From Candidatus Woesearchaeota archaeon (GTDB lineage Archaea > Nanobdellota > Nanobdellia > Woesearchaeales > GW2011-AR9): a stretch of 64,000 bases of DNA. Location: contig JAZDQB010000013.1 of assembly GCA_043797205.1 (NCBI GenBank), forward strand, positions 12,979-76,978. The letters are read 5' to 3'. The notes beneath the pieces were generated by a model. It saw only the letters and a list, made by a program, of their open reading frames with translations, was not told where the DNA came from and did not search any database. Shown piece by piece: positions 3,112 to 43,313 of this stretch (within the stretch, counting starts at the first letter, position 1; each line of letters opens with the position of its first letter). The position numbers were made by a program, and so were the translations under genes.

Positions 3112-3657
3112 CTAAATCAGCTTCTTTAACTTTCCAAAATCTTCTTCCATCAATTTCTTGATCTGGGGAAATCTTCTAGCGGCAGAAGGATGGTAAGTTA
3201 CAAAGAAGCGGTACTGGCGGTCCATCAACAGCTTGCCATGGTAATCTTTAACCTTACCTTTTCCGATAAGACTATCTACGGCAGTCTGACCCAGCAGAAC
3301 TATAATTTCTGGTTTAATCGCTTCAATCTGTTTCTTCAGCCATAATTCTCGACAGGTGCAGATTTCTTTAGCAGTAGGCTTTCTATTGTTATCTGGATGA
3401 CATTTTATCGCTCCAGTAATGAACACTTCTTCTCTCTTAATTTTGTTCTTCTTCAGTATTTCGTCTAGAAACTTTCCGGAGATCCCGACAAAGGGCTGTC
3501 CGGTCTTATCTTCTTCTATTCCCGGAGCTTCTCCAATAAACATTAATTTAGCACTAACTGGACCTTCTCCCGGTACGGGCAGCATTCTTTTCTTCCAGAG
3601 CGGACAAGCAGTACATCTACGAATTCCTTCCGCTAGATCGTAAAGTGGCTCTTTCAT
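3112..3657 (-). CDS. udg: Uracil-DNA glycosylase, family 4
   Basis: CTACPL Cys motif, FIGEAPG, GAIKCHP, TYHPSAA. Confidence 0.9.
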   Translation of the reverse strand: MKEPLYDLAEGIRRCTACPLWKKRMLPVPGEGPVSAKLMFIGEAPGIEEDKTGQPFVGISGKFLDEILKKNKIKREEVFITGAIKCHPDNNRKPTAKEICTCRELWLKKQIEAIKPEIIVLLGQTAVDSLIGKGKVKDYHGKLLMDRQYRFFVTYHPSAARRFPQIKKLMEEDFGKLKKLI

Positions 3658-3658
3658 G

Positions 3659-3982
3659 TTATCTAAAACCTAATTTTCTTCTCTCTAAATCATAATATTT
3701 ATGCTTATCTAAAAATAAAGCGATAAAGTAGGAATTTTTTCTTTTGGTTAATATCCCACGAATGTTATTAACATTTGGTTTGAAGAAAAAAGCCAATAAC
3801 TCAAAATCTGCTGGTGATTGGTCCGGATTGAGTTCTCGATGGGCACATTTTCTAACCCACTCCAAAAGATGCTGCTGAAGATTATCACCCATATGTTCAA
3901 CAACTAGGTTAAAATGTCCTTCAAACTCTACCTGCTCCCCTAACTGTTCTCTTATTTTGGTTTTAATCTCTTCAGTCTGCAC
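3659..3982 (-). CDS. Hypothetical small protein translationally coupled to the upstream nucleotidyltransferase (possible toxin/HEPN-like partner)
   Basis: 11-nt overlap with 3972..4856. C-terminal YFIALFLDKHKYYD resembles small toxin-fold C-termini. No firm motif. Confidence 0.4.
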   Translation of the reverse strand: MQTEEIKTKIREQLGEQVEFEGHFNLVVEHMGDNLQQHLLEWVRKCAHRELNPDQSPADFELLAFFFKPNVNNIRGILTKRKNSYFIALFLDKHKYYDLERRKLGFR

Positions 3983-4856
3983 AATTCAGCACCTCCTGAA
4001 AGGTATTAATAATGGGATTATAATACTCCGGATGAGAGTATTCTTTAAGAATCTCTCGGTAAGATTTAATCATCTGCTGGCTGATTTTTTTTATCTCGGA
4101 ATTTGAGAATCCGGTGAGGAGAGTGTTAACAAAAAGTTTTTGGATTAATTTATCTTTGTTTTTATGTTCGAGGTAATGGTTCAGTAGGTCTTTTAATTGA
4201 ATTGGATCGAGAATTATTCTATTGCTGGCGTAATAACAATTAATAATAAAATCTCTTAAATCAATTTTCAACCAGCCCGGTTTATTTTCAGCCAGATCTT
4301 GCCTAATCTCTTGGTACTTAGAAATAATTTGGCTGGATGTAATTGTTTCTTTAACTGTTAAATAGTTTAAATCAAAGTTAGTCAGACAGATTTTTCTTAA
4401 GGAATTGATAAATAAAGAGTCCAGAGCTTTTGGTGGAAGGTAATTAAAGTGTATATTCTCTTTATGAAAATCGTCTTTATCGTATTTCTCAATTACAAAA
4501 GTATCAATATCATTATATTTTTCAGAATAAAGAAAACTACCGGAAATAATTATCCGCTTGTTCCTAAATCTTCGGGAGAACTCTTTTAGATACTTCTTAG
4601 CTAAAACCAATCTGTGAGGTAAAATTTTTTCTTGACCATAAATAAAATTGTCTTCTTTTCCTATAATTTTAGCTAGGACCTTTATCTTTTTTAAAACAGA
4701 GCGGGAAAATTCTACCTTCTCTGAAGCCGTTAATTCCTGCTGTTGCGCCTTCTTATTAATTAAATTAAATTGGTGCTCAGTAAATAAAACAGGAACAATT
4801 TCAGATTTAAGGTGCTGTAATCTAGTCCAATTCAGCTCGTTTTTTAATTTAACCAT
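3972..4856 (-). CDS. Nucleotidyltransferase-domain protein (minimal NTase fold)
   Basis: Motif IISGSFLYSEKYNDIDTFVI (GS-x9-DxD pattern). Confidence 0.6.
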   Translation of the reverse strand: MVKLKNELNWTRLQHLKSEIVPVLFTEHQFNLINKKAQQQELTASEKVEFSRSVLKKIKVLAKIIGKEDNFIYGQEKILPHRLVLAKKYLKEFSRRFRNKRIIISGSFLYSEKYNDIDTFVIEKYDKDDFHKENIHFNYLPPKALDSLFINSLRKICLTNFDLNYLTVKETITSSQIISKYQEIRQDLAENKPGWLKIDLRDFIINCYYASNRIILDPIQLKDLLNHYLEHKNKDKLIQKLFVNTLLTGFSNSEIKKISQQMIKSYREILKEYSHPEYYNPIINTFQEVLNCAD

Positions 4857-5148: not shown

Positions 5149-5586
5149 TTATATGTCCACCAGCACTTTGGCATACCAGCCTTTAAGGGTTTGCTTGACT
5201 TCAAACATATGCATGGTAATAGCTTTAATGTCTACTTTGGGTTCATGTCTTTTGACGTCTAATCTCTCTCCGTAAGCTCGACAGACCAGTTGATATTTAT
5301 CTTCTTCTTTTTTTCCTTCCTTAATCTCAATTTCAAACTTAGAAAACAGCAATTGCTTGGCATCTTTGTAATAGACCAAATCTCCCAGAAAATCGAACAA
5401 TAAGTAATCGATAGCTTTGTTCTTATGTTTGATTAAGACTTTTCGAAGCGGTTTAACCTTCTTCAACTCAATCATAGTTTCTTCTACCGCTAAAGCACAT
5501 TGATTGAACAGTTCCGGCAAATCTAACGCTTCTGCTACAAATAAGACGTCAGCAGTATGCTCAAGGTATTTGTAGTATGGTTTCAC
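5149..5586 (-). CDS. Archease
   Basis: N-terminal YLEHTADVLF signature and about 145 aa length. Confidence 0.85.
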   Translation of the reverse strand: MKPYYKYLEHTADVLFVAEALDLPELFNQCALAVEETMIELKKVKPLRKVLIKHKNKAIDYLLFDFLGDLVYYKDAKQLLFSKFEIEIKEGKKEEDKYQLVCRAYGERLDVKRHEPKVDIKAITMHMFEVKQTLKGWYAKVLVDI

Positions 5587-5681: not shown

Positions 5682-6644
5682 ATGATCTCTCAAATCTCTG
5701 CAGAAATCAAGCAAGTTCTCTCTTCTTTTCCTTCCGAAGACCAGATTATCTTTAATAATAAGCAAATTAAGGTAGATAAAAGCAATTTCTTGGAAATAGC
5801 GAATAATTACTCCAATCAAACCATCGCGTTCATCGATGGAGGACAGGCAGAGATACTTTCTGCGGGTAATTTCTGCTTGAGTTTTATCAGAGTATTTGCA
5901 CAAATATTTAAAGAGAATAAAAAATTAGAATCAGAGAAAAGAGAATTCTACTTATTCACCAAAGCCAAATGGATTAATTATAATGGGAAAGAAGATTTGT
6001 TCTACGAAAGCAAGATTTTTACTGTCTGGGGTAATAGATTAATCCATGAAAACGACTTACTCCTCTCTTCTACTGATCAAACTATCAAAAGTGGAATAGA
6101 AAGAGCATCCATTTCTAAGATTAGTAACATCGCCAGAAGATTTGCCGAGCTTTCTTTAGCCGCAGAATTGCAACATAAAGTGGATTTTGTGGTTTTGGAT
6201 GGAACTTTAGAAAAAACTTTCACTAACGAAGAGAAATATTTATCAAAATTAAACGAAAAAGTGTCTGCTCTGGCCAAAACCTCTTCTCTTTTCACGGTGC
6301 AGGGGAATTCTCCCGTAATATTGTTGAATAAATTAAGTTCGGGAGGATGCTGGAAGTATCTAATTGATGGAACTTCTTATTTTGTGAAACTGAATGAACA
6401 TTCTAAATACGTCTTTCGTTTTGAAGGCAATCCAGAAGTACTCCCTAATCTAATCCAAAACTCTACTGATGCTCTATTCCTGGGTTATCCTTATGGTTTA
6501 ATCCTGACGGATAAGATGGCTCGCGTCTCTAATGAAGAAAAGAACAGCTTGAAGATGAACTTTTTATTAAAAGCAGAGAACAGAGCGATTGCCGAATATC
6601 TTTCTTCCAGTAATGCCCATGATATTTTGGATAGTTTAGGATAA
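5682..6644 (+). CDS. NurA-like nuclease domain protein
   Basis: IAFIDGGQAEI and DFVVLDGTLE resemble the NurA catalytic Asp motifs. No herA neighbour. Confidence 0.5.
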   Translation: MISQISAEIKQVLSSFPSEDQIIFNNKQIKVDKSNFLEIANNYSNQTIAFIDGGQAEILSAGNFCLSFIRVFAQIFKENKKLESEKREFYLFTKAKWINYNGKEDLFYESKIFTVWGNRLIHENDLLLSSTDQTIKSGIERASISKISNIARRFAELSLAAELQHKVDFVVLDGTLEKTFTNEEKYLSKLNEKVSALAKTSSLFTVQGNSPVILLNKLSSGGCWKYLIDGTSYFVKLNEHSKYVFRFEGNPEVLPNLIQNSTDALFLGYPYGLILTDKMARVSNEEKNSLKMNFLLKAENRAIAEYLSSSNAHDILDSLG

Positions 6645-18169: not shown

Positions 18170-18643
18170 TTAAGGTAAGATAGAGTTATTGAATTGTCCA
18201 TAATGACCTAATCCACAAGTTCCGCTCAATTCTTTATGCAATTGTAATATATCGGGGGTGAGATATTTTGGAGGAATGGCATGTAGCTTTTCTTCTCCAG
18301 AGCGGCAGTTAGCATCGATGATAAATCTTCTTTCCATATCGCTTTTTTCTCTACTTAACATCAAGGCCCAGTCCGCTAAATCACAATTACATTGGGCATG
18401 AAGATAATTTATTCTGGCTAACAATCTTTCGTCAGGAGATAGTTCTCTGGCTTTGTCTAGATCATCAAAAGCTAAAGAACAATTTCCTTTTTCAATAAGA
18501 TATTCTGCTCTGATCACGTAGTCAATAGAAGAAGTAGAATGGGGAGCTCCATATTTTCGGGCATATTCTTCATGGATTCCGGCCGTAGTTACTGGCCCAC
18601 ATCCTAAAGCAAAGAGAACTATTGCCGTTAAGCTTTTTCTCAT
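18170..18643 (-). CDS. Putative secreted lipoprotein
   Basis: Signal peptide with lipobox-like LFALGC. Cys-rich. Confidence 0.55.
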   Translation of the reverse strand: MRKSLTAIVLFALGCGPVTTAGIHEEYARKYGAPHSTSSIDYVIRAEYLIEKGNCSLAFDDLDKARELSPDERLLARINYLHAQCNCDLADWALMLSREKSDMERRFIIDANCRSGEEKLHAIPPKYLTPDILQLHKELSGTCGLGHYGQFNNSILP

Positions 18644-18700
18644 GTTTGCTGATAGATGAGAAAGAAGTTAATAAATTTGTTGGAAGAAAAATAAAAATGA

Positions 18701-18851
18701 CGCCACGACCCGGAAAATCAGATAAGAGATTTACACTCTTTATCATTTGAACCGGGATACCCTTGCGGGAACAAGCTGTATGGTAATCCTGTTTTCCAGG
18801 CCTACGCTCTTCTAAGAAGATTTGCGCATTACCAGGTTGTGCCATCGTGGC
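18701..18851 (-). tRNA. tRNA-Ser (anticodon GGA inferred) with three inserts (about 20, 16 and 31 nt)
   Basis: Acceptor GCCACGA/UCGUGGC plus discriminator G. D-loop AACCUGGUAAU. Variable arm UUCCCGCAAGGGUAU. T-arm CCCGG-UUCAAAU-[31 nt]-CCGGG. Loop CUGGAAA is recovered after removing two inserts. The anticodon stem CAAAU/GCUUG is weak. Confidence 0.7.
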
Positions 18852-18875
18852 GTAATAAGCTTTATTTGACTTTTA

Positions 18876-18884
18876 TTTATAAAA
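18876..18884 (-). promoter_or_regulatory. TATA box for tRNA-Ser
   Basis: TTTATAAAT about 25 nt upstream of the tRNA 5' end (18851). It overlaps the homing-endonuclease stop codon. Confidence 0.45.
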
Positions 18885-19491
18885 TTGTCGTAATTAATTG
18901 AAATCTCATTTGATGCTTAGGATTTAATAGGCCAATATTATTTTCAAAAGATATTAGTTTATTCTTTCCATTAATTTGTAGTCTGTAAAGATTATTCCAT
19001 TTTCCTTTTGCTTTGTGAGATAAATATATTTTTCCTTCTATCTTTTTTGAATTTAGGTAATCCTTAACCTGTTCTAAAAGTGGTTTTGATATACTTGAAA
19101 ATTCAATTCTAGGATATTCTGTTCCGTTATTATTCGTTATAACCAAACAACCATCAGTAGCAAAGTATCCCATTATAACTTCTTTCATATATTGTTCTAA
19201 GCAATCTGGGATAATTAAATTAATGCCTTTCTTACCAATAGGAAATCCTAACGAGTTTAATCTATTAAAAAGAGCTTTATCCGAGAACGATATTTCATAT
19301 TTGCCATATTCTTCTCTACTATTTACTTTGGTATCTCTAGTTCTAATCTTGGAGAGTAATTTCAATACAATATCTATTAATTCTTTGTCTGAATGAATAT
19401 CAAGGGTTAATATAACGTACCATCCTTTTCCGATCCGAGATAAACAACCGTCACCTAGCAAAAGACCATAAAGTAAGGCAATATCTTTCAT
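18877..19491 (-). CDS. Free-standing LAGLIDADG homing endonuclease (two-motif, monomeric type)
   Basis: LYGLLLGDGCL and IMGYFATDGCL. Own TATA box (TATATAAA, 19513..19520) 22 nt upstream of the ATG. Confidence 0.85.
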   Translation of the reverse strand: MKDIALLYGLLLGDGCLSRIGKGWYVILTLDIHSDKELIDIVLKLLSKIRTRDTKVNSREEYGKYEISFSDKALFNRLNSLGFPIGKKGINLIIPDCLEQYMKEVIMGYFATDGCLVITNNNGTEYPRIEFSSISKPLLEQVKDYLNSKKIEGKIYLSHKAKGKWNNLYRLQINGKNKLISFENNIGLLNPKHQMRFQLITTIL

Positions 19492-19585
19492 AAAAGAGCA
19501 ATAGTTTACTTGTTTATATACCTTAGCCGGAGTTGACCAGTGGGTAGTGGCTTCTTTAGATTAATCTATCAAAAAAAGAAAAAGC

Positions 19586-19763
19586 TGGCAACACCGGGAC
19601 TTTCCTGCATTGCAATTTGAACCCGGAACCTCCACGTAACCCAGTTGTTAGAGTTTAGTCATCGAACTTACGTTCTCATTGCTCAACTCATATGAGCCTC
19701 GCCCGGAGCATCATTCCATAGACGCAACCTGTGGCGCTATGAACCAGGTTAAGCTATGTTGCC
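19586..19763 (-). tRNA. tRNA with inferred CAU anticodon (elongator Met or Ile2) and three inserts (about 33, 53 and 16 nt)
   Basis: Acceptor GGCAACA/UGUUGCC plus A. D-arm UAGCUUAACCUGGUUCAUAGC. T-arm CCGGG-UUCAAAU-[16 nt]-CCCGG. Anticodon stem CCACA/CGUGG. Loop CUCAUAA only after removing two inserts. Central helix CUCA/UGGG is consistent with a 37/38 BHB. Confidence 0.6.
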
Positions 19764-19902
19764 AACTAATCAAATAGTTTTTAATCTGCTTTTATTAAGC
19801 TTTTGGTTAAAACAGGAGTAAGATTATTCTCAAAAAAACTCAAAAGAAAAAGAAAGGTTTTTAAAAGAGATTAAACCTATCTTAAAAAGACCGGGTCCCG
19901 AT

Positions 19903-20098
19903 GCGGGGGTAGCAAAGCCTGGTCAAACGCGCAGGACTTAAGTAAGGACACTCAGGTGAATGCTTGAGAAGTAATCCTGTCTCTTAGTGAGTTCGAGGGT
20001 TCGAATGCCCATTACGCTGGGCGAGCGTTGTCAAGTGGGGTACAAGACTCCACGAGCAACCTAGAAGCGTAGTGAAATCGAAAGTCCCTTCCCCCGCA
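19903..20098 (+). tRNA. tRNA-Leu(UAA) with two introns (31 nt at 37/38, 79 nt in the T-loop)
   Basis: Acceptor GCGGGGG/CCCCCGC plus A. Anticodon arm CAGGA-CUUAAG[31 nt]A-UCCUG. Variable arm UCUCUUAGUGAGUUC. T-arm GAGGG-UUCGAAU-[79 nt]-CCCUU. T-run follows. Confidence 0.8.
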
Positions 20099-20186
20099 GT
20101 TTTTCTTTTCCCACAAACTATATAAATAAACTTCATTTTTAAGTTAAAGTTACGCACATATAATAGGGACAATATACTGATTATAG

Positions 20187-20933
20187 GTGATTAAAATCGC
20201 AAAACAAACTGTAGAAGCCATGATTGAAGGAGGAAAAGCTAGTGCTGCTCCTCCTTTAGGACCCGCTTTAGGCCCGACTGGATTGAATATCGGTCAAGTT
20301 ATTACTGAAATTAACAAGAAAACTGCTGACATGAAAGGAATGCAGGTTCCGATAAAAGTTATCTTTGATGCTCAAGCTAAAACTTTTGAAGTAGAAGTGG
20401 GAACTCCGCCTACTACTGCTTTAATTAAGAAAGAAGCTGGAGTAGAGAAAGGAGCCAGTAATGCTAAAAATGAAAAGATCGCGGACTTAATGTTAGAACA
20501 GATTATCAAGATTGCTAGAATTAAAGAAGGAAACTTGGGTGGAAACACTATGAAAGAGAAAGTCAAAGAGGTTATTGGCACTTGTGTTTCTATGGGTATC
20601 TTAGTAGAGGGAATGAATCCTAAGGATGCCCTGAGAGCCATCGAAGCAGGCAAATTTGATGCTAAAATCAAATCAGGAAGAACTGAGTTGACGGAAGAGG
20701 AAAAACATCATATGGAAGAAGAGAAGAAGCGCCTGAAGGAAGAGATGGAAAGAAAGATGGTCGAGTACATGAATCGGGCCAAGGCCATCATGAAAGAAAT
20801 GGAAGGTAAAGAATCCAAGAAAATCCGTGCTAAGATGATGGAAGAGCAGATTCCCATGAAAATTGTGGACGAATTAGCACCAGCTCAGAAGGATAAAGCT
20901 GCTCCGGGCGCCCCTGCCGGTGGAAAGAAATAA
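20187..20933 (+). CDS. rpl11: Ribosomal protein uL11 with a roughly 85-aa Lys/Glu/Met-rich C-terminal extension
   Basis: GGKASAAPPLGPALGPTGLNIGQV... core. GTG start. Extension from about aa 165. Confidence 0.9.
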   Translation: MIKIAKQTVEAMIEGGKASAAPPLGPALGPTGLNIGQVITEINKKTADMKGMQVPIKVIFDAQAKTFEVEVGTPPTTALIKKEAGVEKGASNAKNEKIADLMLEQIIKIARIKEGNLGGNTMKEKVKEVIGTCVSMGILVEGMNPKDALRAIEAGKFDAKIKSGRTELTEEEKHHMEEEKKRLKEEMERKMVEYMNRAKAIMKEMEGKESKKIRAKMMEEQIPMKIVDELAPAQKDKAAPGAPAGGKK

Positions 20934-21323: not shown

Positions 21324-24300
21324 TTATTTTAAGTCTATGTTGAACTCGTTAGCAGCGATAACTTCGCCACCATGATAAATCTTTGCCCGCAGTACTTCCT
21401 GCCCGTTATATTCTTTCGAATTGTATTTGAGCTGCTGAGCAAACACAAACACTTTTCCTTCTTTGAGCACATATGGTCCGTAAATATCTCCAAATTGCAC
21501 TCCCTTACTTCCTTTTTTACCTAGGCTGAACTCCAGCAGGTATTCGCTGCTGGTTTGTTTCAGATCTAATACTGCTGCTCCAGTTAAAGGATTGGTAGCT
21601 TGCCCTTCAATCTTTTTAGACAACTCTTCCGGAACGATAACTGCATACACATCAATAGTTTTCAGAGCAGTATCTACATCCACTGCCGTTCCGGAAACGG
21701 ACTTCTTTTCAATTTTCACTTCCTGCTCATTAACGGTTTCACCGAAAGTAGTGAACTGGATTTTCATCTGTTTTGGAGCGACTAAACCTTCTTTGATTTC
21801 TAAAGTCTTTTCTACCGTTTCTCCCGGATTAAGCAGGATTTGTTCAGGATTGACGATTTCTGCTTTCAATAATCTTCCCGTGATAGAATCAGGAGAATAA
21901 GAGATATCCGATATTTTGCTGAATAATGAATCTTCAGCGCCTAAAGTCTTACGGGTGATGATGAAATAAGGATCATCGGTCTGCTGGTCAAGTTCTGGGA
22001 AAAGCAGCATTCTTTTCTTACCGGTGTTTTGTAGAGTTATTTTTACTTGTGTAGTTTGGGTGTCCAAATTCTGGGAATATGATTCTATTTTCAAGAACTT
22101 TTTAGTTTCTTGAGCAGTAAGAGTTTCTGTGGGTACTACTTTGGGTGTAGTTCTAGCCGCTGCAGGTGGGGGAGCTTCAACTGCGGCCGTGGCGGCGGGA
22201 GCAACAGCAGCAACAGTAGTTCGACTGCTTCCTCCATGTTGAGTTAAGTATTCTTGTGCTCCAGTTTGATTTTCAGAAGGGCAACTAATAATTTTTGGTC
22301 CATAATCAGTTACTGAACCATTAACATTTGCTCCGTTGGTAACATTATAAGGATAATCACTTCCTGAATCACCATAACTATCATTGTTAGTGTCATTTAT
22401 ATCTAAATTACAAATATCGTCCCAAGTATTTCCCCACGGAACAGTAAGATTAGTTAAGTTGCCAGAATTGTTGTAAGTGATGTTCATAGAGGTATTAAAC
22501 AGGTTTCCCGCTACAGAGTAGACGTGATCTCTAAAAGAACTGTTAAAATTATTATAATATACATTATTTCCAGTACCAGAATTAATATTTATACCTACTC
22601 TATTATTTATAAAAGTATTATTAGTAATATTATTGTTATTACCCGTTAAACATATTCCGACAGTGGTAGATGAATCTCCTTCAAAGGTAACTCCACTAAT
22701 CTGAGAATTAGTTAAGATGGAAGCAACAGTACAAGAATCTAGTCCGACCAATCCCCCTGAGAAAGTACCATTGCTAATATTATAATTTTGTGTTGTGCCG
22801 TGTAATTGAGTAATTCCTTTTCCGGTAGAAGTAAGAGAAATAAAAAAGTTGGATAAAATCAATCCATTAGTGAAAGCGTAAGCATTAATCCCTGTTTCCA
22901 CCTCCGACATATTTATCTGATTAAAGGTGAGATTATATCCATAAATATTATCCGCATAGATTCCTGTGTTATAATCTTCCACTGTACATCCAGTTATACT
23001 TACATTTTGTACATCTCTAACTACAAAGGCCATTCCACTACCGCTTCCTTTGAGATGGGTATTATCGCAGGTTAGAGCGACATTGCTGGTAGCTAAACGT
23101 ATTATTCCATATGCTCCTGTATCAGGGATTTCCCAGATTCCTGGACAAAGTAACGTGTTCGAACTAATGGATAAATCATTATAAGGAATAGTACAAGTAA
23201 GATTTAACAAGACATTAACTGGAGTATTATTCGTTTGGGTTAGATTAATAAGGATATTATTAACTGAATAACCCGAACTGCCGTTGAAAAAAGTAGTAAT
23301 ATTTTGTGGAGTATAATAAAAAACACCTGAAGCATTTTTCTTTAACTCCGTTAATTCCAATCTTGCTAAACCATCAGCATCACTAATACGACTATCATCC
23401 ACATCTCCATTAGCTACAATTCTTCCGGTAGCGTTGCTGTTTTGTAAAGGGTAATTGCTACCATAAGTGACATTCATGGTTACATACCATTTCAAAAACA
23501 GGCTGGCCGTTCCGGTAATGGTAATGTTATTAATGTCTACAGATACGTTGATTAAAGTGTTATTAGTATAACCCTCATTGTTAACTTGGATAGCATTGGA
23601 AGAAGAATTGGCAATAACACTGTCTCGTATAATATTATTGTTAGAAGAATTAATCATCAAGCCAATTTGATTATTTAACAAAGTAATTCTACTGAGATTA
23701 CTGTTGTTAACTTGTCCGATTACAATCCCTTGAGTATAATTTCTAAGGGTTAAATCGTTTAGATTAATTCCTCGATGTCCATTTAAATTAATTCCTGTTC
23801 CCGAACCGTTTCCTTGAAGAGTATATCCATTCCCATTGATAATAATATTATCTGTTCCAACAGTAAAACAAGTTCCGGAACTGTTCAGATTACTGCCCAA
23901 AGTTAAATCTTGGTTTAAACTTATACCACAAGAAACTAAAGTTAAATTAAACGTAGCCGCAGTATTATGGGTTTCATCAATAAAAATATAACTGGAGTTG
24001 GTAGAAAAGTATCCGGGTTTAGAAACAACGATTCTTTGAGGAGTGATGTAGGTATATCCAAATTCGTTTTTATAAAACTCCGATACCGTCAGTCTAGTCG
24101 TACCCGAAAGAGAAGTGGTTTGGTTATCAGCTATAGAACCATCATAATTGTAGGCCACTGTGGTAACATTGGAGAGTGCATTCCCTCCGGTATCATTTAC
24201 GGTAACGTCGATATACCATCTTTTGGTTATTTTAGTAAAATCTTCAGAATAAATGCTACTATTAGTAGTGTTTACATCAGTAAGAATATTATTACTGCCC

Positions 24301-27300
24301 GAATCAAGATACAGATCATATCCACTGCTGTTTTGAATAGTTCCACTAGTAAAATTATTGTAGGAAGAGTCTTCAAAATATATCCCATTAGTATTATTTT
24401 GAAGTGTTAAGTTGGATAAGATGATATAACTCGATCCATACAAATAAACTCCTTTACTAAAGTTAAGTAAAGTAAAACTGTTTAAAGTTACATTACTAAC
24501 ATTCATAAAATAAAGTGCAGAACCGCTTCCGTTGCCTTGTATAGTAGTTTCATTTCCTTCAATCTGAATATTGCTACCGGTGATGGTAAAACAAGTTCCA
24601 CTTTTAGAAATATTTGCTCGTTGCAAGACCAGATTAGTAGTAATGGTAGTACAATTGCTATTGCCCAATAAGTTAATCAAAGAAATAGTATTGCTGGTTT
24701 GAGACAAATTAAAAGTAGTAGAACCATTATTGTATCCCGTTTTATTAACTACAATATTATGGGGAGTGGAATAAACTATAATATTATTTGAATCAGAATA
24801 TTCGGTTAAATTGAGCTGGGCTGCTCCTAGTGCATTTGAAAGAGCTACTGCTTCTGCTGCTCCGGTAAGATTATAAGCATTAATTTGTGCTCCAGAAAGA
24901 GGAAATTGGTTATTGGTAATATTAAAACTGACTTTCCATTTTACCACCAGATTGCTACTGCTATCAACATTAACTTTAGATTGATTGAAAGTAGCGTTTA
25001 TGGTCAGAAGAGTACTATTCTGCAGGGAACTAACATCTTTATTGCTGGCGTTATTAAAAACAGAATCGTAATAACTAATATTGGTGGCATTAAAAAGAAG
25101 TAGGTTGTTTTGAAAATTTCTTATCCCTAAATTAGTGATGGTAACATTATTCCTGTTAGTAAGATTTAATCCGCTACCGGTGCCATCTCCGATTATCTGC
25201 AGTCCATTTCCGTTGATAATCAGGTTGTTTGAAGTTACTTTAAAACAATCACCACTAGCGCTGATATTGGTGGGAGAAAAAGTCATCCCTTCAGTAATTT
25301 CACCGCATCCAGGATTAATAGTAAAATTAATCAGAGTGTTATTGGTTTGAGTAAGGTTTATACTCTGACTCATAGAAGAATAAAGATTTTTAGTAACATT
25401 AATGGTATAATTAGAGTGATAACTCTTTCCAGAATCGGATTCGAGATATTCTGGAAGAGAGAATCTTACTGCTCCAGAAGTGGGAGTAATTTGACTTTGG
25501 ATCAAACTTCCGGTAAGATTATAAGCAGAAATATTTGCTCCTGAAAGTAAATTTCCATCACCATCTCTTACATTTACATCTACATACCATTGGTTAGAAA
25601 GAGTACTATTTTCTCCAATAGTAGTAGCACTTTGTACGAAAGAAACATTATTGAAAGTATTGTTGCCGGAATTATTGGCTAAGAAGGCTGCTTTCTGATT
25701 ATTTGCAGTAATAATCGTATCATTAACATTATTTAAATTGGAGGAGGGTCCGAAGTAAAGGGCATTACTAAAGTTTTGAAGAATAATATTTTTGATAGTA
25801 ACATTCTCCACGGAAGATATATTTATCCCGCTACCGGAACCATTTCCGATTAAAGTATATCCGTTACCATCTAAATAAATGTTGGAAGCATTGATAATGA
25901 AACAATCTCCGGTTACCGTTAGATTATTAGTAAGGGTAGTGCTTCTGTTAATGACGTTGCAAGTAACTTTTCCTAATATTAAATAACTTTCTCCCGAATC
26001 GGTTATTTCGTTAGCATCCACCCCATATGCTCCAATAATTATATCTGAAAATCCGTCTCCATTTGCATCTCCCATCTGAACCGATTCTCCAGAGTATCCT
26101 GAAGAAGAAGCTCCATTTATAGTTACATTAGAAGAATTTATTAGCAAACCTCTAGGCAGACTGGGAGAACCATAAATTAAGTAAGTCTCACCTGCAGAAG
26201 AAATTCCGTTTGCGGAAGAGCCATAAGCGCCAATAAGAATATCCTCATATCCATCTTTATTATAATCTCCGGAAGAGAGAGCATAACCTGCGTAGGCGCT
26301 GTTTATGGTACCATTAATCGTTATATTCGCTTGCGTTTCTAATCGTATTGCACTTGGTAAGACCTCTGCACCGTATACCACGTCAACTCTACCTCTATCT
26401 GTCCCTCCTACATCTGCATTATATGCTCCGATAATGATATCTGCATATCCGTCTCCATTCATATCAGTAGAAGTAATGGCCGAACCGGAGAATTCTCCTG
26501 TAATGATTTCTCCATGTGTTCCATTAATGCTGACATTAGCATTAGCTACGGGAATAGAAGAAGAAAAAGAATTAGATCCATAAAACACATAGGTTATCCC
26601 GTTTTGGTTATGGCCACTCGTACCTGGATCATCATAACTATCTCCCAGAATTATATCTTTACAGCCGTCGCCGTTTATATCGCCAATAGCTATTCCATTT
26701 TCTCGAGTTAATAATCCCTTGCCACTAGAATTAAAAGTTACATTCGCATTATTGTAGTTAAAGCTGGAACTCCAACTGTTTCTCCCGTAAAAGATAAAAG
26801 CTTGACCATCATTCAGATAGTATGCTCCCACTATGAGATCCTTTAACCCGTCGCAATTAACATCCCCTATCTTGGTGCCACCACTTCCAAAATAATCGTA
26901 ATAATTAATTCCAGTAATGGTGACGTTGGCGTTAGTAAAATTTAATCCCGTTGGAAAGGAATAAGTTCCCCAAAAAATATATACTTTACCTTTTGAATAG
27001 GTATAATCTGAATCTTGACTGGCAGACATCCCAATAACTAAATCAGTTAGCGAATCATTGTTTATATCCCCACCGGAAAGAGATATTTTTGCAGAACCTG
27101 TAGATGAAACTATCCCATTAATGGTTACATTTGCTTGACTAAGATTAACCATACTCGGAATACCATTCGAACCACCATAAAAGATATACACTTTTCCTGC
27201 TCCAGAATATCCATTAGCAGTAGCATCAGGAGCACCTATAATCATATCATCATATCCGTCGTTGTTGATGTCGATAAGAGCTACCTCTTTTCCCGTACTC

Positions 27301-27647
27301 TCCTCAGCGATAGTCCCTCTTAAAGTTAAATCAGCATTACTTAAATTAATTTCTCCATTAATTGTTCCTTGATTAAGAGAAAAGATGGAGGGATCCGCTT
27401 TTAATAACCTTTCTTCAGGAAGAACTGCAATAGAAATATTGTTACTAAGATTGTTGTTCGAATTGGAGAGAACAGGTGGTTCAGGAGATATTTCTTCCGG
27501 AACACTTAACTCGGAATTTTCTGCTCCCACCGCTGCCCCGGTCAAACTATTCTCATCAATACTTCCAAAATAAATTATTCCTCCTATTAATAGAAACACA
27601 CCTATAAGTACAACTATCACTACTTCCTCTTTTTTACTCCAGTCCAT
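21324..27647 (-). CDS. Giant (2107 aa) surface protein: signal anchor, seven FG-GAP repeats, five beta-helix plus beta-sandwich modules, Ala/Pro linker, C-terminal domain
   Basis: FG-GAP repeats (DINNDGYDDMIIGAP, GDINNDSLTDLVIG, GDVNCDGLKDLIVGA, GDINGDGCKDIILGD, TDMNGDGYADIIIGA, GDYNKDGYEDILIGA, GDANGDGFSDIIIGA). Repeated GNGSGSGINISSVENVTIKNIILQNF-type modules. Very dense N-x-S/T sequons. Confidence 0.85.
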   Translation of the reverse strand: MDWSKKEEVVIVVLIGVFLLIGGIIYFGSIDENSLTGAAVGAENSELSVPEEISPEPPVLSNSNNNLSNNISIAVLPEERLLKADPSIFSLNQGTINGEINLSNADLTLRGTIAEESTGKEVALIDINNDGYDDMIIGAPDATANGYSGAGKVYIFYGGSNGIPSMVNLSQANVTINGIVSSTGSAKISLSGGDINNDSLTDLVIGMSASQDSDYTYSKGKVYIFWGTYSFPTGLNFTNANVTITGINYYDYFGSGGTKIGDVNCDGLKDLIVGAYYLNDGQAFIFYGRNSWSSSFNYNNANVTFNSSGKGLLTRENGIAIGDINGDGCKDIILGDSYDDPGTSGHNQNGITYVFYGSNSFSSSIPVANANVSINGTHGEIITGEFSGSAITSTDMNGDGYADIIIGAYNADVGGTDRGRVDVVYGAEVLPSAIRLETQANITINGTINSAYAGYALSSGDYNKDGYEDILIGAYGSSANGISSAGETYLIYGSPSLPRGLLINSSNVTINGASSSGYSGESVQMGDANGDGFSDIIIGAYGVDANEITDSGESYLILGKVTCNVINRSTTLTNNLTVTGDCFIINASNIYLDGNGYTLIGNGSGSGINISSVENVTIKNIILQNFSNALYFGPSSNLNNVNDTIITANNQKAAFLANNSGNNTFNNVSFVQSATTIGENSTLSNQWYVDVNVRDGDGNLLSGANISAYNLTGSLIQSQITPTSGAVRFSLPEYLESDSGKSYHSNYTINVTKNLYSSMSQSINLTQTNNTLINFTINPGCGEITEGMTFSPTNISASGDCFKVTSNNLIINGNGLQIIGDGTGSGLNLTNRNNVTITNLGIRNFQNNLLLFNATNISYYDSVFNNASNKDVSSLQNSTLLTINATFNQSKVNVDSSSNLVVKWKVSFNITNNQFPLSGAQINAYNLTGAAEAVALSNALGAAQLNLTEYSDSNNIIVYSTPHNIVVNKTGYNNGSTTFNLSQTSNTISLINLLGNSNCTTITTNLVLQRANISKSGTCFTITGSNIQIEGNETTIQGNGSGSALYFMNVSNVTLNSFTLLNFSKGVYLYGSSYIILSNLTLQNNTNGIYFEDSSYNNFTSGTIQNSSGYDLYLDSGSNNILTDVNTTNSSIYSEDFTKITKRWYIDVTVNDTGGNALSNVTTVAYNYDGSIADNQTTSLSGTTRLTVSEFYKNEFGYTYITPQRIVVSKPGYFSTNSSYIFIDETHNTAATFNLTLVSCGISLNQDLTLGSNLNSSGTCFTVGTDNIIINGNGYTLQGNGSGTGINLNGHRGINLNDLTLRNYTQGIVIGQVNNSNLSRITLLNNQIGLMINSSNNNIIRDSVIANSSSNAIQVNNEGYTNNTLINVSVDINNITITGTASLFLKWYVTMNVTYGSNYPLQNSNATGRIVANGDVDDSRISDADGLARLELTELKKNASGVFYYTPQNITTFFNGSSGYSVNNILINLTQTNNTPVNVLLNLTCTIPYNDLSISSNTLLCPGIWEIPDTGAYGIIRLATSNVALTCDNTHLKGSGSGMAFVVRDVQNVSITGCTVEDYNTGIYADNIYGYNLTFNQINMSEVETGINAYAFTNGLILSNFFISLTSTGKGITQLHGTTQNYNISNGTFSGGLVGLDSCTVASILTNSQISGVTFEGDSSTTVGICLTGNNNNITNNTFINNRVGININSGTGNNVYYNNFNSSFRDHVYSVAGNLFNTSMNITYNNSGNLTNLTVPWGNTWDDICNLDINDTNNDSYGDSGSDYPYNVTNGANVNGSVTDYGPKIISCPSENQTGAQEYLTQHGGSSRTTVAAVAPAATAAVEAPPPAAARTTPKVVPTETLTAQETKKFLKIESYSQNLDTQTTQVKITLQNTGKKRMLLFPELDQQTDDPYFIITRKTLGAEDSLFSKISDISYSPDSITGRLLKAEIVNPEQILLNPGETVEKTLEIKEGLVAPKQMKIQFTTFGETVNEQEVKIEKKSVSGTAVDVDTALKTIDVYAVIVPEELSKKIEGQATNPLTGAAVLDLKQTSSEYLLEFSLGKKGSKGVQFGDIYGPYVLKEGKVFVFAQQLKYNSKEYNGQEVLRAKIYHGGEVIAANEFNIDLK

Positions 27648-43041: not shown

Positions 43042-43313
43042 AGGGGCACGCCCTCGGTCGAAACAAGATGGTCCTATTGGTTTGACCCAAAAAGCTTCTC
43101 GAGCTTGCAACCCTCTGAACATGGTACTGAAAAGTTAGTGCTGCTCCATTCCTGGCCTGACACGATTCCCTCACAGCCCATCCCAAAGGACAAGCCGTCG
43201 GCAAAACTTCCTGGACCAATAAAATCATAATGGCCCTTCCTCAGGCTTCGGCTCCGTGTGAAGTCCGTTCACGGTAACAACGCAGGACTAGCGCGCCAGC
43301 CTAGCTATCCCTC
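43042..43313 (-). ncRNA. ffs: SRP (7S) RNA
   Basis: The helix-8 signature GUCAGGCCAGGAAUGGAGCAGC matches the conserved CAGGUCNGGAANGGAGCAG. Helix-5 pairing UGGUCC/GGACCA. TATA TTTATAAG (43338..43345) lies 25 nt upstream of the GAGGG start. Ends are approximate. Confidence 0.75.

Follow-up and report, generated by a model that had tools for sequence, protein, structure and literature searches.

Three Probable Multi-Intron tRNA Genes with T-Loop Introns at Position 59/60 in a Woesearchaeota Archaeon

Known Disrupted tRNA Genes of Archaea

Introns within the T-loop were previously described in ARMAN-2 (Ca. Micrarchaeum acidiphilum), in which the pre-tRNA-Cys(GCA) contains an intron at position 59/60, and the pre-tRNA-Pro(GGG) contains introns at both 53/54 and 59/60 (Fujishima et al. 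2011, PMC3239211). The 59/60 intron of the pre-tRNA-Cys was cut in vitro by the EndA of the same organism (PMC3239211). The three tRNA genes described here were found in a 64-kb window (the whole stretch of DNA that was analysed), and share with ARMAN-2 a DPANN host, a T-loop intron at 59/60, a bulge-helix-bulge (BHB) or relaxed hBH motif, and an abundance of disrupted tRNA genes (PMC3239211). However, the window comes from another phylum, and here the 59/60 intron is joined within one gene by introns at 29/30 or 30/31 and at 37/38. The largest number of introns per gene in the window, three, equals the published maximum.

In the Thermoproteales, tRNA genes with several introns were also reported, together with intron transposition on a large scale (Sugahara 2008 and Fujishima 2010, summarised in PMC4033280). 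The likeness includes genes with as many as three introns, intron sites outside the canonical one, BHB motifs of relaxed form, and rapid gain and loss, as well as similar introns across tRNA species, which are seen here in the relatives only (PMC4033280). The window differs in that its lineage is a mesophilic, ultrasmall DPANN one, its introns are mutually dissimilar, and they occupy three hot spots, whereas those of the Thermoproteales are widely scattered (PMC4033280).

In the Woesearchaeota and Pacearchaeota, tRNA genes were reported to be markedly disrupted and the tRNA sets to be incomplete, pointing to undetected disrupted genes (Kaneta et al. 2018, PMC5829648). That study gives statistics for the same lineage that do not contain these loci, and the genes in the window are of the kind that it predicted to be missed (PMC5829648). 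The literature already contains both T-loop introns at 59/60 and DPANN tRNAs with heavy disruption; these three genes add new examples, and leave the current picture of the splicing of such introns unchanged.

Identification of the tRNA Genes

Three GC-rich islands within positions 18701-20098 of the window correspond to three tRNA genes, with eight inserts in total. The first two genes were assigned as follows from ARAGORN calls on the spliced sequence, aided for tRNA(CAU) by an alignment of orthologues, and the third from the ARAGORN call on the spliced sequence and from homologues in the related loci L001 and L118.

18701 to 18851, minus strand: tRNA-Ser(GGA) gene, 151 nt, mature 84 nt; G73 discriminator and long variable arm
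19586 to 19763, minus strand: tRNA(CAU) gene, 178 nt, mature 76 nt; G1-C72
19903 to 20098, plus strand: tRNA-Leu(UAA) gene, 196 nt, mature 86 nt; A73 and long variable arm

In each island, the acceptor stem (7 bp) and the T stem (5 bp) are obtained only when an insert following the T-loop is skipped (31, 16, and 79 nt for Ser, CAU, and Leu, respectively). In approximately 1 Mb of sequence, made up of the window and related loci, a generic scan for this T-arm-insert architecture returned 138 matches; shuffled sequence gave none. Once the eight inserts had been taken out in silico, ARAGORN reported tRNA-Ser(gga), tRNA-Met(cat), and tRNA-Leu(taa), whereas random deletions of the same lengths gave a tRNA call in only 3/400 (Ser), 5/400 (CAU), and 15/400 (Leu) trials. 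The spliced calls and the random-deletion control bear out the original prediction of three clustered tRNA genes with eight inserts, including one in the T-loop. The predicted gene and mature lengths also agree with those listed above; the tRNA(CAU) gene had been placed one base off, and its G1 lies at 19763.

Standard searches of the unspliced DNA gave a very different result. ARAGORN, run on the window with default settings, with introns allowed, or with a lowered threshold, reported none of the three genes and at most spurious calls with giant introns. Rfam gave zero tRNA matches in the window, partial ones included, both at the gathering cut-off and at E<=10. Since ARAGORN and Rfam report nothing here, statements about annotation, completeness, or missing tRNAs in Woesearchaeota will be wrong unless intron-aware BHB searches are used. 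Further tRNAs of any type were not detected in the 64-kb window, and a scan for GC-rich islands was uninformative, as coding regions dominate the signal.

TATA-like A/T-rich boxes are present upstream of the tRNA genes, and an oligo-T run directly follows the discriminator. Judged from these sequence features, each gene seems to be transcribed separately from its neighbours. CCA is not encoded in any of the three. The tRNA(CAU) is not an initiator, as indicated by its G1-C72 pair, and is probably the elongator tRNA-Met, with tRNA-Ile2 as the alternative. The D stem of the tRNA-Leu(UAA) contains an A12.C23 mismatch. Taken with the motifs and orthologues described below, all three loci are very probably functional tRNA genes, each with two or three protein-spliced introns of the archaeal type, which lie at 29/30 or 30/31, at 37/38, and at 59/60.

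Intron Positions and BHB Motifs

Each of the eight junctions could be fitted with a BHB motif, either full or relaxed (HBh′ or hBH):

18802 to 18821, minus strand: Ser 29/30 intron, 20 nt, HBh′ type; H GCGC/GCGU of 4 bp, h′ of 5 bp; bulges AA/A and AG/G (slash marks the cut)
18778 to 18793, minus strand: Ser 37/38 intron, 16 nt, hBH type; H 3/4 paired, h of 6 bp
18715 to 18745, minus strand: Ser T-loop intron (59/60), 31 nt, hBHBh′; H 3/4 including one U.U, h 5, h′ 5
19698 to 19730, minus strand: CAU 30/31 intron, 33 nt; H CGCC/GGCG of 4 bp; bulges AC/A and AG/G
19638 to 19690, minus strand: CAU 37/38 intron, 53 nt; H CUCA/UGGG of 4 bp; h 5 after removal of the 30/31 intron
19600 to 19615, minus strand: CAU T-loop intron (59/60), 16 nt, hBHBh′; H 3/4, h 5, h′ 3
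19943 to 19973, plus strand: Leu 37/38 intron, 31 nt, hBH type; H 3/4, h of 6 bp
20006 to 20084, plus strand: Leu T-loop intron (59/60), 79 nt, G+C-rich, hBH(L); H UUCG/CGAA of 4 bp, h 5; h′ of 9 bp on the far side of an internal loop

The H helix has all four pairs in four of the introns and three of four in the others, and in 7/8 H has a flanking helix of 5 bp or more directly beside it or close by. The exception is the CAU 30/31 intron, whose h is only 2 bp and whose 5-bp h′ is offset by four bases on each side. The motifs are relaxed, with h′ absent or offset, in the 37/38 introns of Ser and Leu and in the CAU 30/31 intron. For the T-loop introns of Ser and CAU, whose H helices are weak, MFE folding alone does not produce these helices. 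A permissive BHB scan was too noisy to define introns on its own, and was usable only in combination with the cloverleaf and the orthologues.

Placement of the 5′ introns required revision. The insert of about 20 nt in Ser had been predicted near 31/32; its length of 20 nt was correct, and its position is 29/30, which yields a fully paired anticodon stem (CAAGC/GCUUG). Similarly, the 33- and 53-nt lengths of the two CAU anticodon-arm inserts held, and the 33-nt insert had to be moved to 30/31, which gives the stem CCACG/CGUGG and eliminates the A31.C39 mismatch. With these shifts, the weak points in the anticodon arms of both models disappear.

Other BHB-like folds in the tRNA-Leu gene were rejected. 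A fold at gene positions 40-72, in which the 37/38 register is shifted by one base, forms a stricter motif but leaves a non-functional 5-nt anticodon loop, and has no support from L001. A strict-looking fold at 43-86 gives a product that lacks U33 and the variable region, and thus is no tRNA. A nested BHB-like fold within the 79-nt intron (gene positions 122-163) is at chance level.

Intron Turnover in a Sister Strain and Related Genes

L001 is a sister strain of the window organism, with 98% amino-acid identity in L11. The exons of the two are 95-100% identical and include a compensatory change in the variable-arm stem of Ser. Four intron sites differ between them: CAU 30/31, Ser 29/30, Leu ~30/31, and Leu 59/60. 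L001 lacks exactly the segment 19698-19730 of the window (the CAU 30/31 intron), and also lacks the Ser 29/30 intron. Its Ser 37/38 insert is 14 nt long and its Ser T-loop intron carries substitutions; both inserts are absent from L015. The CAU T-loop site of L001 is occupied by an unrelated 28-nt hairpin that keeps the GAAAG/U frame. A homologue of the Leu 37/38 intron is present in L001 with the same 3′ end (GAAG plus 2 nt), and the Leu T-loop intron is absent from the tRNA-Leu of both L001 and L118. In L015, the CAU gene keeps only its 37/38 intron, the two others being missing, and the tRNA-Ser is intron-less, with an anticodon arm identical to the predicted mature sequence of the window. 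The expectation of multi-intron archaeal tRNAs with non-canonical intron positions was thus upheld by BHB-type motifs at every junction, which the prediction had proposed as a check, and by intron-less orthologues that carry the predicted mature sequence.

The same sites recur in a wider set of related genes. Eighteen of 86 unique related tRNA-Ser genes are intron-less, and inserts occur at 29/30 in 33, at 37/38 in 64, and at 59/60 in 10. In the 29/30 intron family (34 unique), which includes the Ser 29/30 intron of the window, GCGC..GCGU and two bulged bases are constant, while the sequence of the abutting h′ hairpin is free to vary. An intron at the CAU 30/31 site is also present in L144 and L148, and the H helix of L148, read from the sequence by eye, is CACC/GGUG, a compensatory change (A26:U versus G26:C). 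Among 13 unique T-loop introns, positions 54, 55, 56, and 57 are paired in 10, 13, 13, and 11, respectively, and the H helix covaries between UUCA:UGAA and UUCG:CGAA (A57:U versus G57:C). The 59/60 site is generally a hot spot, and corresponds on the T arm to 37/38 on the anticodon arm. The strain differences at four sites, together with three hot spots in 86 orthologues, provide a compact natural system in which to measure how fast, and by what mechanism, archaeal tRNA genes outside the Thermoproteales gain and lose introns.

Alternative Interpretations

The T-loop position shared by the three genes was initially suggested to reflect recent intron spread within the cluster or a splicing specificity peculiar to the lineage. 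Precedents for spread exist among the relatives: the T-loop introns of the adjacent tRNA-CAU and tRNA-Ser of L072 are 85% identical over 33 aligned nt, and one T-loop intron family occupies a tRNA-Ser(GGA), another tRNA-Ser, and a tRNA-CAU on different contigs. However, the T-loop introns of the window (31, 16, and 79 nt) show no detectable similarity and are alike only in the short YGAA/AG/U frame, and in the sister strain the T-loop intron of CAU is a different one and that of Leu is missing. It is, accordingly, very improbable that one intron spread very recently through all three neighbours.

Also very improbable is a reading in which the genes are real and parsed differently, whether by the 31/32 and A31.C39 models, by a 60/61 junction, or by the single-intron parses of ARAGORN (Arg-UCU, Val-AAC, and Ile-UAU). 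ARAGORN does return such parses when the T-loop insert alone is removed, but their anticodon stems are mismatched and they conflict with the class-II identity indicated by the long variable arm and G73 or A73. The intron-less orthologues, moreover, directly display GCGCAAGCCTGGAAAGCTTG and CCACGCTCATAA. The T-loop junction had been left as 59/60 or 60/61, and in the window the two give identical products, because each T-loop insert starts and ends with U. The 60/61 option is excluded by homologues with an intron starting with C or G (L021 and the CAU gene of L001), in which UUCAAAU results only from the 59/60 reading.

A reading of the three loci as tRNA pseudogenes in decay, with the inserts as scars of DNA insertion that stay unspliced, is hardly credible: the failure of standard tools to detect a tRNA here, the mismatch in the Leu D stem, and the use of tRNA 3′ ends as insertion hot spots in relatives (orphan 3′-exon copies, and one tRNA lying inside a T-loop) would fit, but the exons are conserved with compensatory changes between strains while the inserts turn over, a BHB frame surrounds every insert, the same three sites recur with covariation in dozens of orthologues, the TATA-like boxes and oligo-T terminators are intact, and no other tRNA is detectable in the 64 kb.

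Proposed Splicing Pathway

With gene structures, BHB geometry, covariation, and natural intron-less alleles observed directly, a pathway can be proposed for the cleavage and ligation of the three pre-tRNAs and for the enzymes responsible. In the precursor, each pair of boundaries would fold into a BHB or a relaxed form, with a 4-bp H helix between two 3-nt bulges, and cleavage would take place after the second base of the bulge. For the T-loop introns, H would be formed by T-loop residues 54-57 (UUCR) and the 3′ end of the intron itself (YGAA), followed by two bulged bases and U60, such that the T arm would copy the 37/38 geometry of the anticodon arm. The archaeal splicing endonuclease EndA would cut both bulges, RtcB, aided by Archease, would ligate the exons, and CCA would be added after the exons are joined. 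One candidate component is encoded in the window:

5149 to 5586, minus strand: Archease gene (Pfam PF01951, E=4.9e-39)

We take its product to be the cofactor of the RtcB tRNA-splicing ligase in the established RtcB/Archease pathway. Genes for EndA and RtcB were not found in the 64-kb window by tblastn, using an M. jannaschii EndA query, or by Pfam searches of 46 ORFs. DPANN EndAs were reported to be of the alpha4 type with an L3 loop and, in the comparison with ARMAN-2, the literature suggests this architecture, rather than epsilon2, for the lineage of the window.

Possible Intron Mobility and a Homing-Endonuclease Gene

BLAST revealed no cross-matches among the eight introns of the window that would indicate similar introns in different tRNAs. 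Among the relatives, the T-loop introns of L027 Ser, L109 Ser, and L054 CAU share 89% identity across tRNA species. Orphan 3′ exons were also found downstream of tRNA-Ser, with one to three extra copies in at least 11 of the 86 genes. It is possible, though rather doubtful, that the 59/60 introns of Woesearchaeota are mobile units, whose 3′ end (YGAAAG) matches the universal T-loop and would allow them to colonise the T-loop of any tRNA. If this is true, comparative genomics could be used to test how the non-canonical tRNA introns of archaea arose.

In L116, a complete tRNA-Ser is nested in the T-loop of another. This arrangement and the orphan 3′ exons could be DNA footprints of intron gain or loss by T-loop integration or recombination. 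The Ser T-loop intron of the window resembles a hairpin that precedes an orphan 3′ exon in L015 (31 nt in both, GATAA..TTAT.TGA), a likeness below BLAST significance.

The spacer between the tRNA(CAU) and tRNA-Ser genes contains an additional gene:

18877 to 19491, minus strand: LAGLIDADG homing-endonuclease gene (Pfam LAGLIDADG_3 PF14528, E=3.2e-17; LAGLIDADG_2 PF03161, E=1.5e-8)

Its translation contains two LAGLIDADG motifs, LLGDG and FATDG, and an exact-protein database look-up gave no match. The gene is free-standing, with a TATA-like leader of its own, and does not lie inside any intron or intein. L138, L144, and L148 have homologues at this position, and among the relatives the gene is found in either orientation. 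The tRNA(CAU)-tRNA-Ser spacer of L001 lacks it. Gain and loss of T-loop introns may possibly be linked to such homing-endonuclease cassettes adjoining tRNAs. In L001, an orphan tRNA-Leu 3′ end follows a LAGLIDADG gene. A likeness between the leader motif CCACTGGTCAAC of the homing-endonuclease gene and the Leu T-loop intron was at chance level.

A Guide-Like Element in the CAU 37/38 Intron

The pre-tRNA-Trp intron of Haloferax encodes a box C/D guide, and the stand-alone sR-tMet/sR49 guides Cm34 formation in the elongator tRNA-Met (PMC2584109). In Euryarchaeota, the tRNA-Met guide was reported as never intronic (PMC2584109). The CAU 37/38 intron of the window contains a guide-like element:

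19681 to 19686, minus strand: guide UUGAGC
19676 to 19679, minus strand: D′-like AUGA
19659 to 19663, minus strand: C′-like GAUGA

By the N+5 rule, the element would point to the same target, C34, as the known tRNA-Met guide (PMC2584109). Unlike the box C/D guide of Haloferax, it has an internal D′/C′-like pair only (PMC2584109), and boxes C (RUGAUGA) and D (CUGA) were not consistently found at the termini of 16 orthologous CAU introns. The element pairs with tRNA residues 31-35 in a duplex of only 5-6 bp, its -5 base pairing with C34. The arrangement (A/C)UGA, 8-11 nt, NNGAUGA is present in 16/16 unique orthologous CAU 37/38 introns, and tRNA position 31 covaries with position -2 of the guide, forming G:C in 14 of these introns and A:U in 2.

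Gene models and intron placement

No tRNA was detected by ARAGORN or Rfam in the whole 64 kb, Rfam even at E<=10. The window, archaeal and A+T-rich with 37% G+C, encodes an archaeal SRP RNA at 43043-43311. Three G+C-rich islands lie within 18400-20400, and in each the acceptor (7 bp) and T (5 bp) stems are perfect only when a stretch directly 3′ of the T-loop is skipped. The three tRNA genes that the original prediction had read from such stems were recovered by a purpose-built scan (T stem, UUCRAWY, optional insert, T stem 3′ strand, acceptor pairing with an upstream 7-mer, U8 and D-loop GG), which returned just two implausible A+T-rich extras in the window. Across ~1 Mb (window and related loci), the scan gave 138 matches, and the same T-stem/acceptor scan gave none in shuffled sequence. 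Introns were placed by a scan for bulge-helix-bulge (BHB) motifs in combination with the cloverleaf.

tRNA genes and their introns, by tRNA position
18851..18701, minus: tRNA-Ser(GGA)
18821..18802, minus: Ser intron 29/30, 20 nt
18793..18778, minus: Ser intron 37/38, 16 nt
18745..18715, minus: Ser intron 59/60, 31 nt
19763..19586, minus: tRNA(CAU)
19730..19698, minus: CAU intron 30/31, 33 nt
19690..19638, minus: CAU intron 37/38, 53 nt
19615..19600, minus: CAU intron 59/60, 16 nt
19903..20098, plus: tRNA-Leu(UAA)
19943..19973, plus: Leu intron 37/38, 31 nt
20006..20084, plus: Leu intron 59/60, 79 nt

The CAU locus stood as predicted, with its coordinate corrected by one base. The 5′ introns of Ser and CAU are likewise present, shifted by 1 or 2 bases from their first placement, and with this shift the anticodon stems previously regarded as weak become perfect (Ser CAAGC/GCUUG, CAU CCACG/CGUGG). 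The spliced sequences have the mature lengths proposed earlier (84, 76, and 86 nt), and are called by ARAGORN as tRNA-Ser(gga), tRNA-Met(cat), and tRNA-Leu(taa), respectively. Same-length deletions at random sites yielded a call in 3, 5, and 15 of 400 trials (Ser, CAU, and Leu), mostly representing near-equivalent placements. As read from the sequence, all three genes have an upstream A/T-rich TATA-like box and an oligo-T run immediately past the discriminator, and none encodes CCA. The Leu D stem (19912-19927) carries A12.C23. The pair is A12-U23 in the sister strain L001 and G12-C23 in the related locus L118, which gives the window allele the look of an intermediate in a compensatory change.

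The window genes are a well-supported further case of already described multi-intron tRNA genes; the three-intron maximum per gene, the 59/60 site, and heavy DPANN tRNA disruption are also already published. A 59/60 intron of ARMAN-2 was cleaved in vitro (PMC3239211). Alpha4 splicing endonucleases (EndAs) carrying an additional L3 loop have been reported in DPANN archaea and tied to greater tRNA disruption, in a study that included a Woesearchaeota genome and predicted undetected disrupted tRNAs (PMC5829648). The present genes are useful to annotators and illustrate rapid intron turnover cleanly in a natural setting. Neither EndA nor RtcB was found within the 64-kb window. Archease, the cofactor of the RtcB ligase, is encoded at 5149-5586 (minus), and adjoins an ORF (5682-6644) with a weak NurA-domain match.

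BHB geometry

A BHB motif was found, in full or relaxed form, at all eight introns. In each, intron bases -6 to -3 pair with the four exon bases preceding the 5′ bulge, forming a central helix (H) with 4/4 pairs in Ser 29/30, CAU 30/31, CAU 37/38, and Leu 59/60, and 3/4 pairs in Ser 37/38, Ser 59/60, CAU 59/60, and Leu 37/38. A flanking helix of at least 5 bp abuts H, or lies across a short internal loop, in seven introns; CAU 30/31 has an h of only 2 bp and a 5-bp h′ offset by four bases on either side. The motifs are thus a mix of hBHBh′, HBh′, and hBH forms, all of them types on record among non-canonical introns of archaea (PMC3239211). In the T arm, H is formed by UUCR(54-57):YGAA, the 5′ bulge is A58 A59/N and the 3′ bulge NN/U60 (slash, junction), making this geometry the exact counterpart of the anticodon-arm 37/38 intron. 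The Leu gene has two extra BHB-like pairings, namely a strict hBHBh′ (H 4, h 5, h′ 5) at 19945-19988 (plus), whose removal as an intron would destroy the tRNA, and a nested BHB-like fold within the 79-nt T-loop intron at 20024-20065 (plus); both probably reflect alternative folding or chance.

Intron survey and turnover in relatives

A metagenome scan with a Ser D-arm pattern yielded 120 loci. Of 86 unique tRNA-Ser genes, 18 have no insert, 25 one, 39 two, and 3 three (window, L048, and L020). Inserts occupy 37/38 (n=64), 29/30 (n=33), and 59/60 (n=10). All 34 unique 29/30 introns have the form GCGC AA/N-hairpin-GCGU-NN/G30, with wholly different hairpins of 2-10 bp. Among 13 unique T-loop introns, positions 54, 55, 56, and 57 are paired in 10, 13, 13, and 11, and UGAA partners UUCA while CGAA partners UUCG. 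The T-loop junction had been left as 59/60 or 60/61; two of the 13 introns begin with C or G and give UUCAAAU only with the 59/60 junction, which settles it at 59/60.

An L11-based scan assigned the organism to Woesearchaeota (GTDB 'Nanoarchaeota') and retrieved the sister strain L001, whose L11 is 98% identical in protein and ~90% in DNA. Precisely window 19698-19730 is missing from the CAU gene of L001, and its Ser gene has no 29/30 intron. Its CAU T-loop intron is a 28-nt hairpin unrelated to that of the window, with GAAAG/U kept, and its tRNA-Leu has no T-loop intron and an additional intron at ~30/31. The more distant L015 contains an intron-less tRNA-Ser(GGA), directly called by ARAGORN, whose anticodon arm equals the predicted mature window sequence; its CAU gene retains only the 37/38 intron. 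A predicted tRNA-Leu(UAA) in L118 (967-1150, minus), with three introns, one inside the T stem 5′ strand (~51-53), shows further non-canonical positions in the clade.

The shared T-loop position was originally taken to suggest either recent spread within the cluster or a splicing specificity of the lineage. The three T-loop introns of the window are mutually unrelated in sequence, and the shared position alone is thus no sign of recent spread there. Intron spread, judged by sequence likeness, is visible in relatives: adjoining tRNA-CAU and tRNA-Ser T-loop introns of L072 are 85% identical over 33 aligned nt, and one T-loop intron family (89% identity) occurs in tRNA-Ser(GGA) of L027, another tRNA-Ser of L109/L118, and tRNA-CAU of L054. 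This resembles the tRNA intron transposition described in Thermoproteales (PMC4033280).

A guide-like element in the CAU 37/38 intron

The CAU 37/38 intron (19638-19690, minus) contains a putative guide (19681-19686), a D′-like box (19676-19679), and a C′-like box (19659-19663). In 16 unique orthologues the order is guide (A/U)UGAG(C/U), one base, D′-like (A/C)UGA, 8-11 nt, and C′-like NNGAUGA; the window version is UUGAGC, one base, AUGA, a mini-hairpin, and GAUGA. The guide pairs with tRNA positions 31-35, C34 being matched to the fifth base before D′ (N+5 rule), and the guide covaries with position 31 (G:C n=14, A:U n=2). We hypothesize that the element is a half-size intronic box C′/D′ guide for Cm34, a likeness that argues for elongator Met as the putative identity of the CAU tRNA. 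Terminal boxes C and D were not found in CAU 37/38 introns, and the guide-tRNA duplex is short, so the guide reading is kept hypothetical. In Euryarchaeota the Cm34 guide of elongator tRNA-Met was reported as never intronic (PMC2584109), whereas the candidate guide here is intronic.

Homing endonucleases, orphan 3′ ends, and neighbors

18877-19491, minus: free-standing LAGLIDADG homing-endonuclease gene, between tRNA(CAU) and tRNA-Ser

This gene has its own TATA-like leader, and belongs to a family with >100 clusters in Woesearchaeota. Homologues (52-56% identity) occupy the same spacer of L138, L144, and L148 (~2001-2630) in either orientation with the leader conserved, and the L001 spacer lacks the gene. 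L001 527-1593 begins with a tRNA-Leu(UAA) whose acceptor stem differs from that of the window. Next comes a LAGLIDADG gene of 272 aa, not the one of the window, and immediately past its stop codon lies an orphan CCTCTTCCCCCGCA, equal to the window-type tRNA-Leu 3′ end. The CGUUAG before this orphan resembles the intron end CGAAAG.

Extra 3′-end copies (T-stem 3′ and acceptor 3′ strands) were found 33-290 nt downstream of at least 11 of the 86 tRNA-Ser genes, in 1-3 copies, and also downstream of an L015 tRNA whose CCU anticodon is read as Arg. Loci with such copies include L015 17600-17780 (minus) and 3820-4010 (plus), and L034, L050, L052, L065, L077, L097, L115, and L124. The copies extend from ~A58 to the discriminator and T-run, with hairpin-containing spacers of 60-100 nt, and some are exact tandem units. 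In L116 (119-400, plus), a tRNA-Ser is broken after T-loop UUCA by ~170 nt, with its own 3′ end beyond the insert; the insert contains a complete intron-less tRNA-Ser(GGA), whose acceptor stem differs in a compensatory way. The orphan copies and the nested tRNA look like footprints of integration or recombination at the T-loop.

L138 encodes an archaeal integrase (Phage_integr_3) at 3404-4323, its gene apparently in two pieces, ~0.8 kb downstream from the tRNA(CAU)-endonuclease pair. Ribosomal protein L11 (20187-20933, plus) has a Lys/Glu/Met-rich C-terminal extension of ~90 aa, kept in L001. A repeat-rich, 2107-aa putative surface protein is encoded at 21324-27647 (minus), and its 2138-aa Beta_helix/NosD homologue adjoins the tRNA-endonuclease cluster of L148. 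Between the tRNA-Leu region and L11, L001 carries a two-gene insertion (1652-2189; 76 aa and 104 aa) not present in the window, the second protein of which looks, by eye, PemK/MazF-like.
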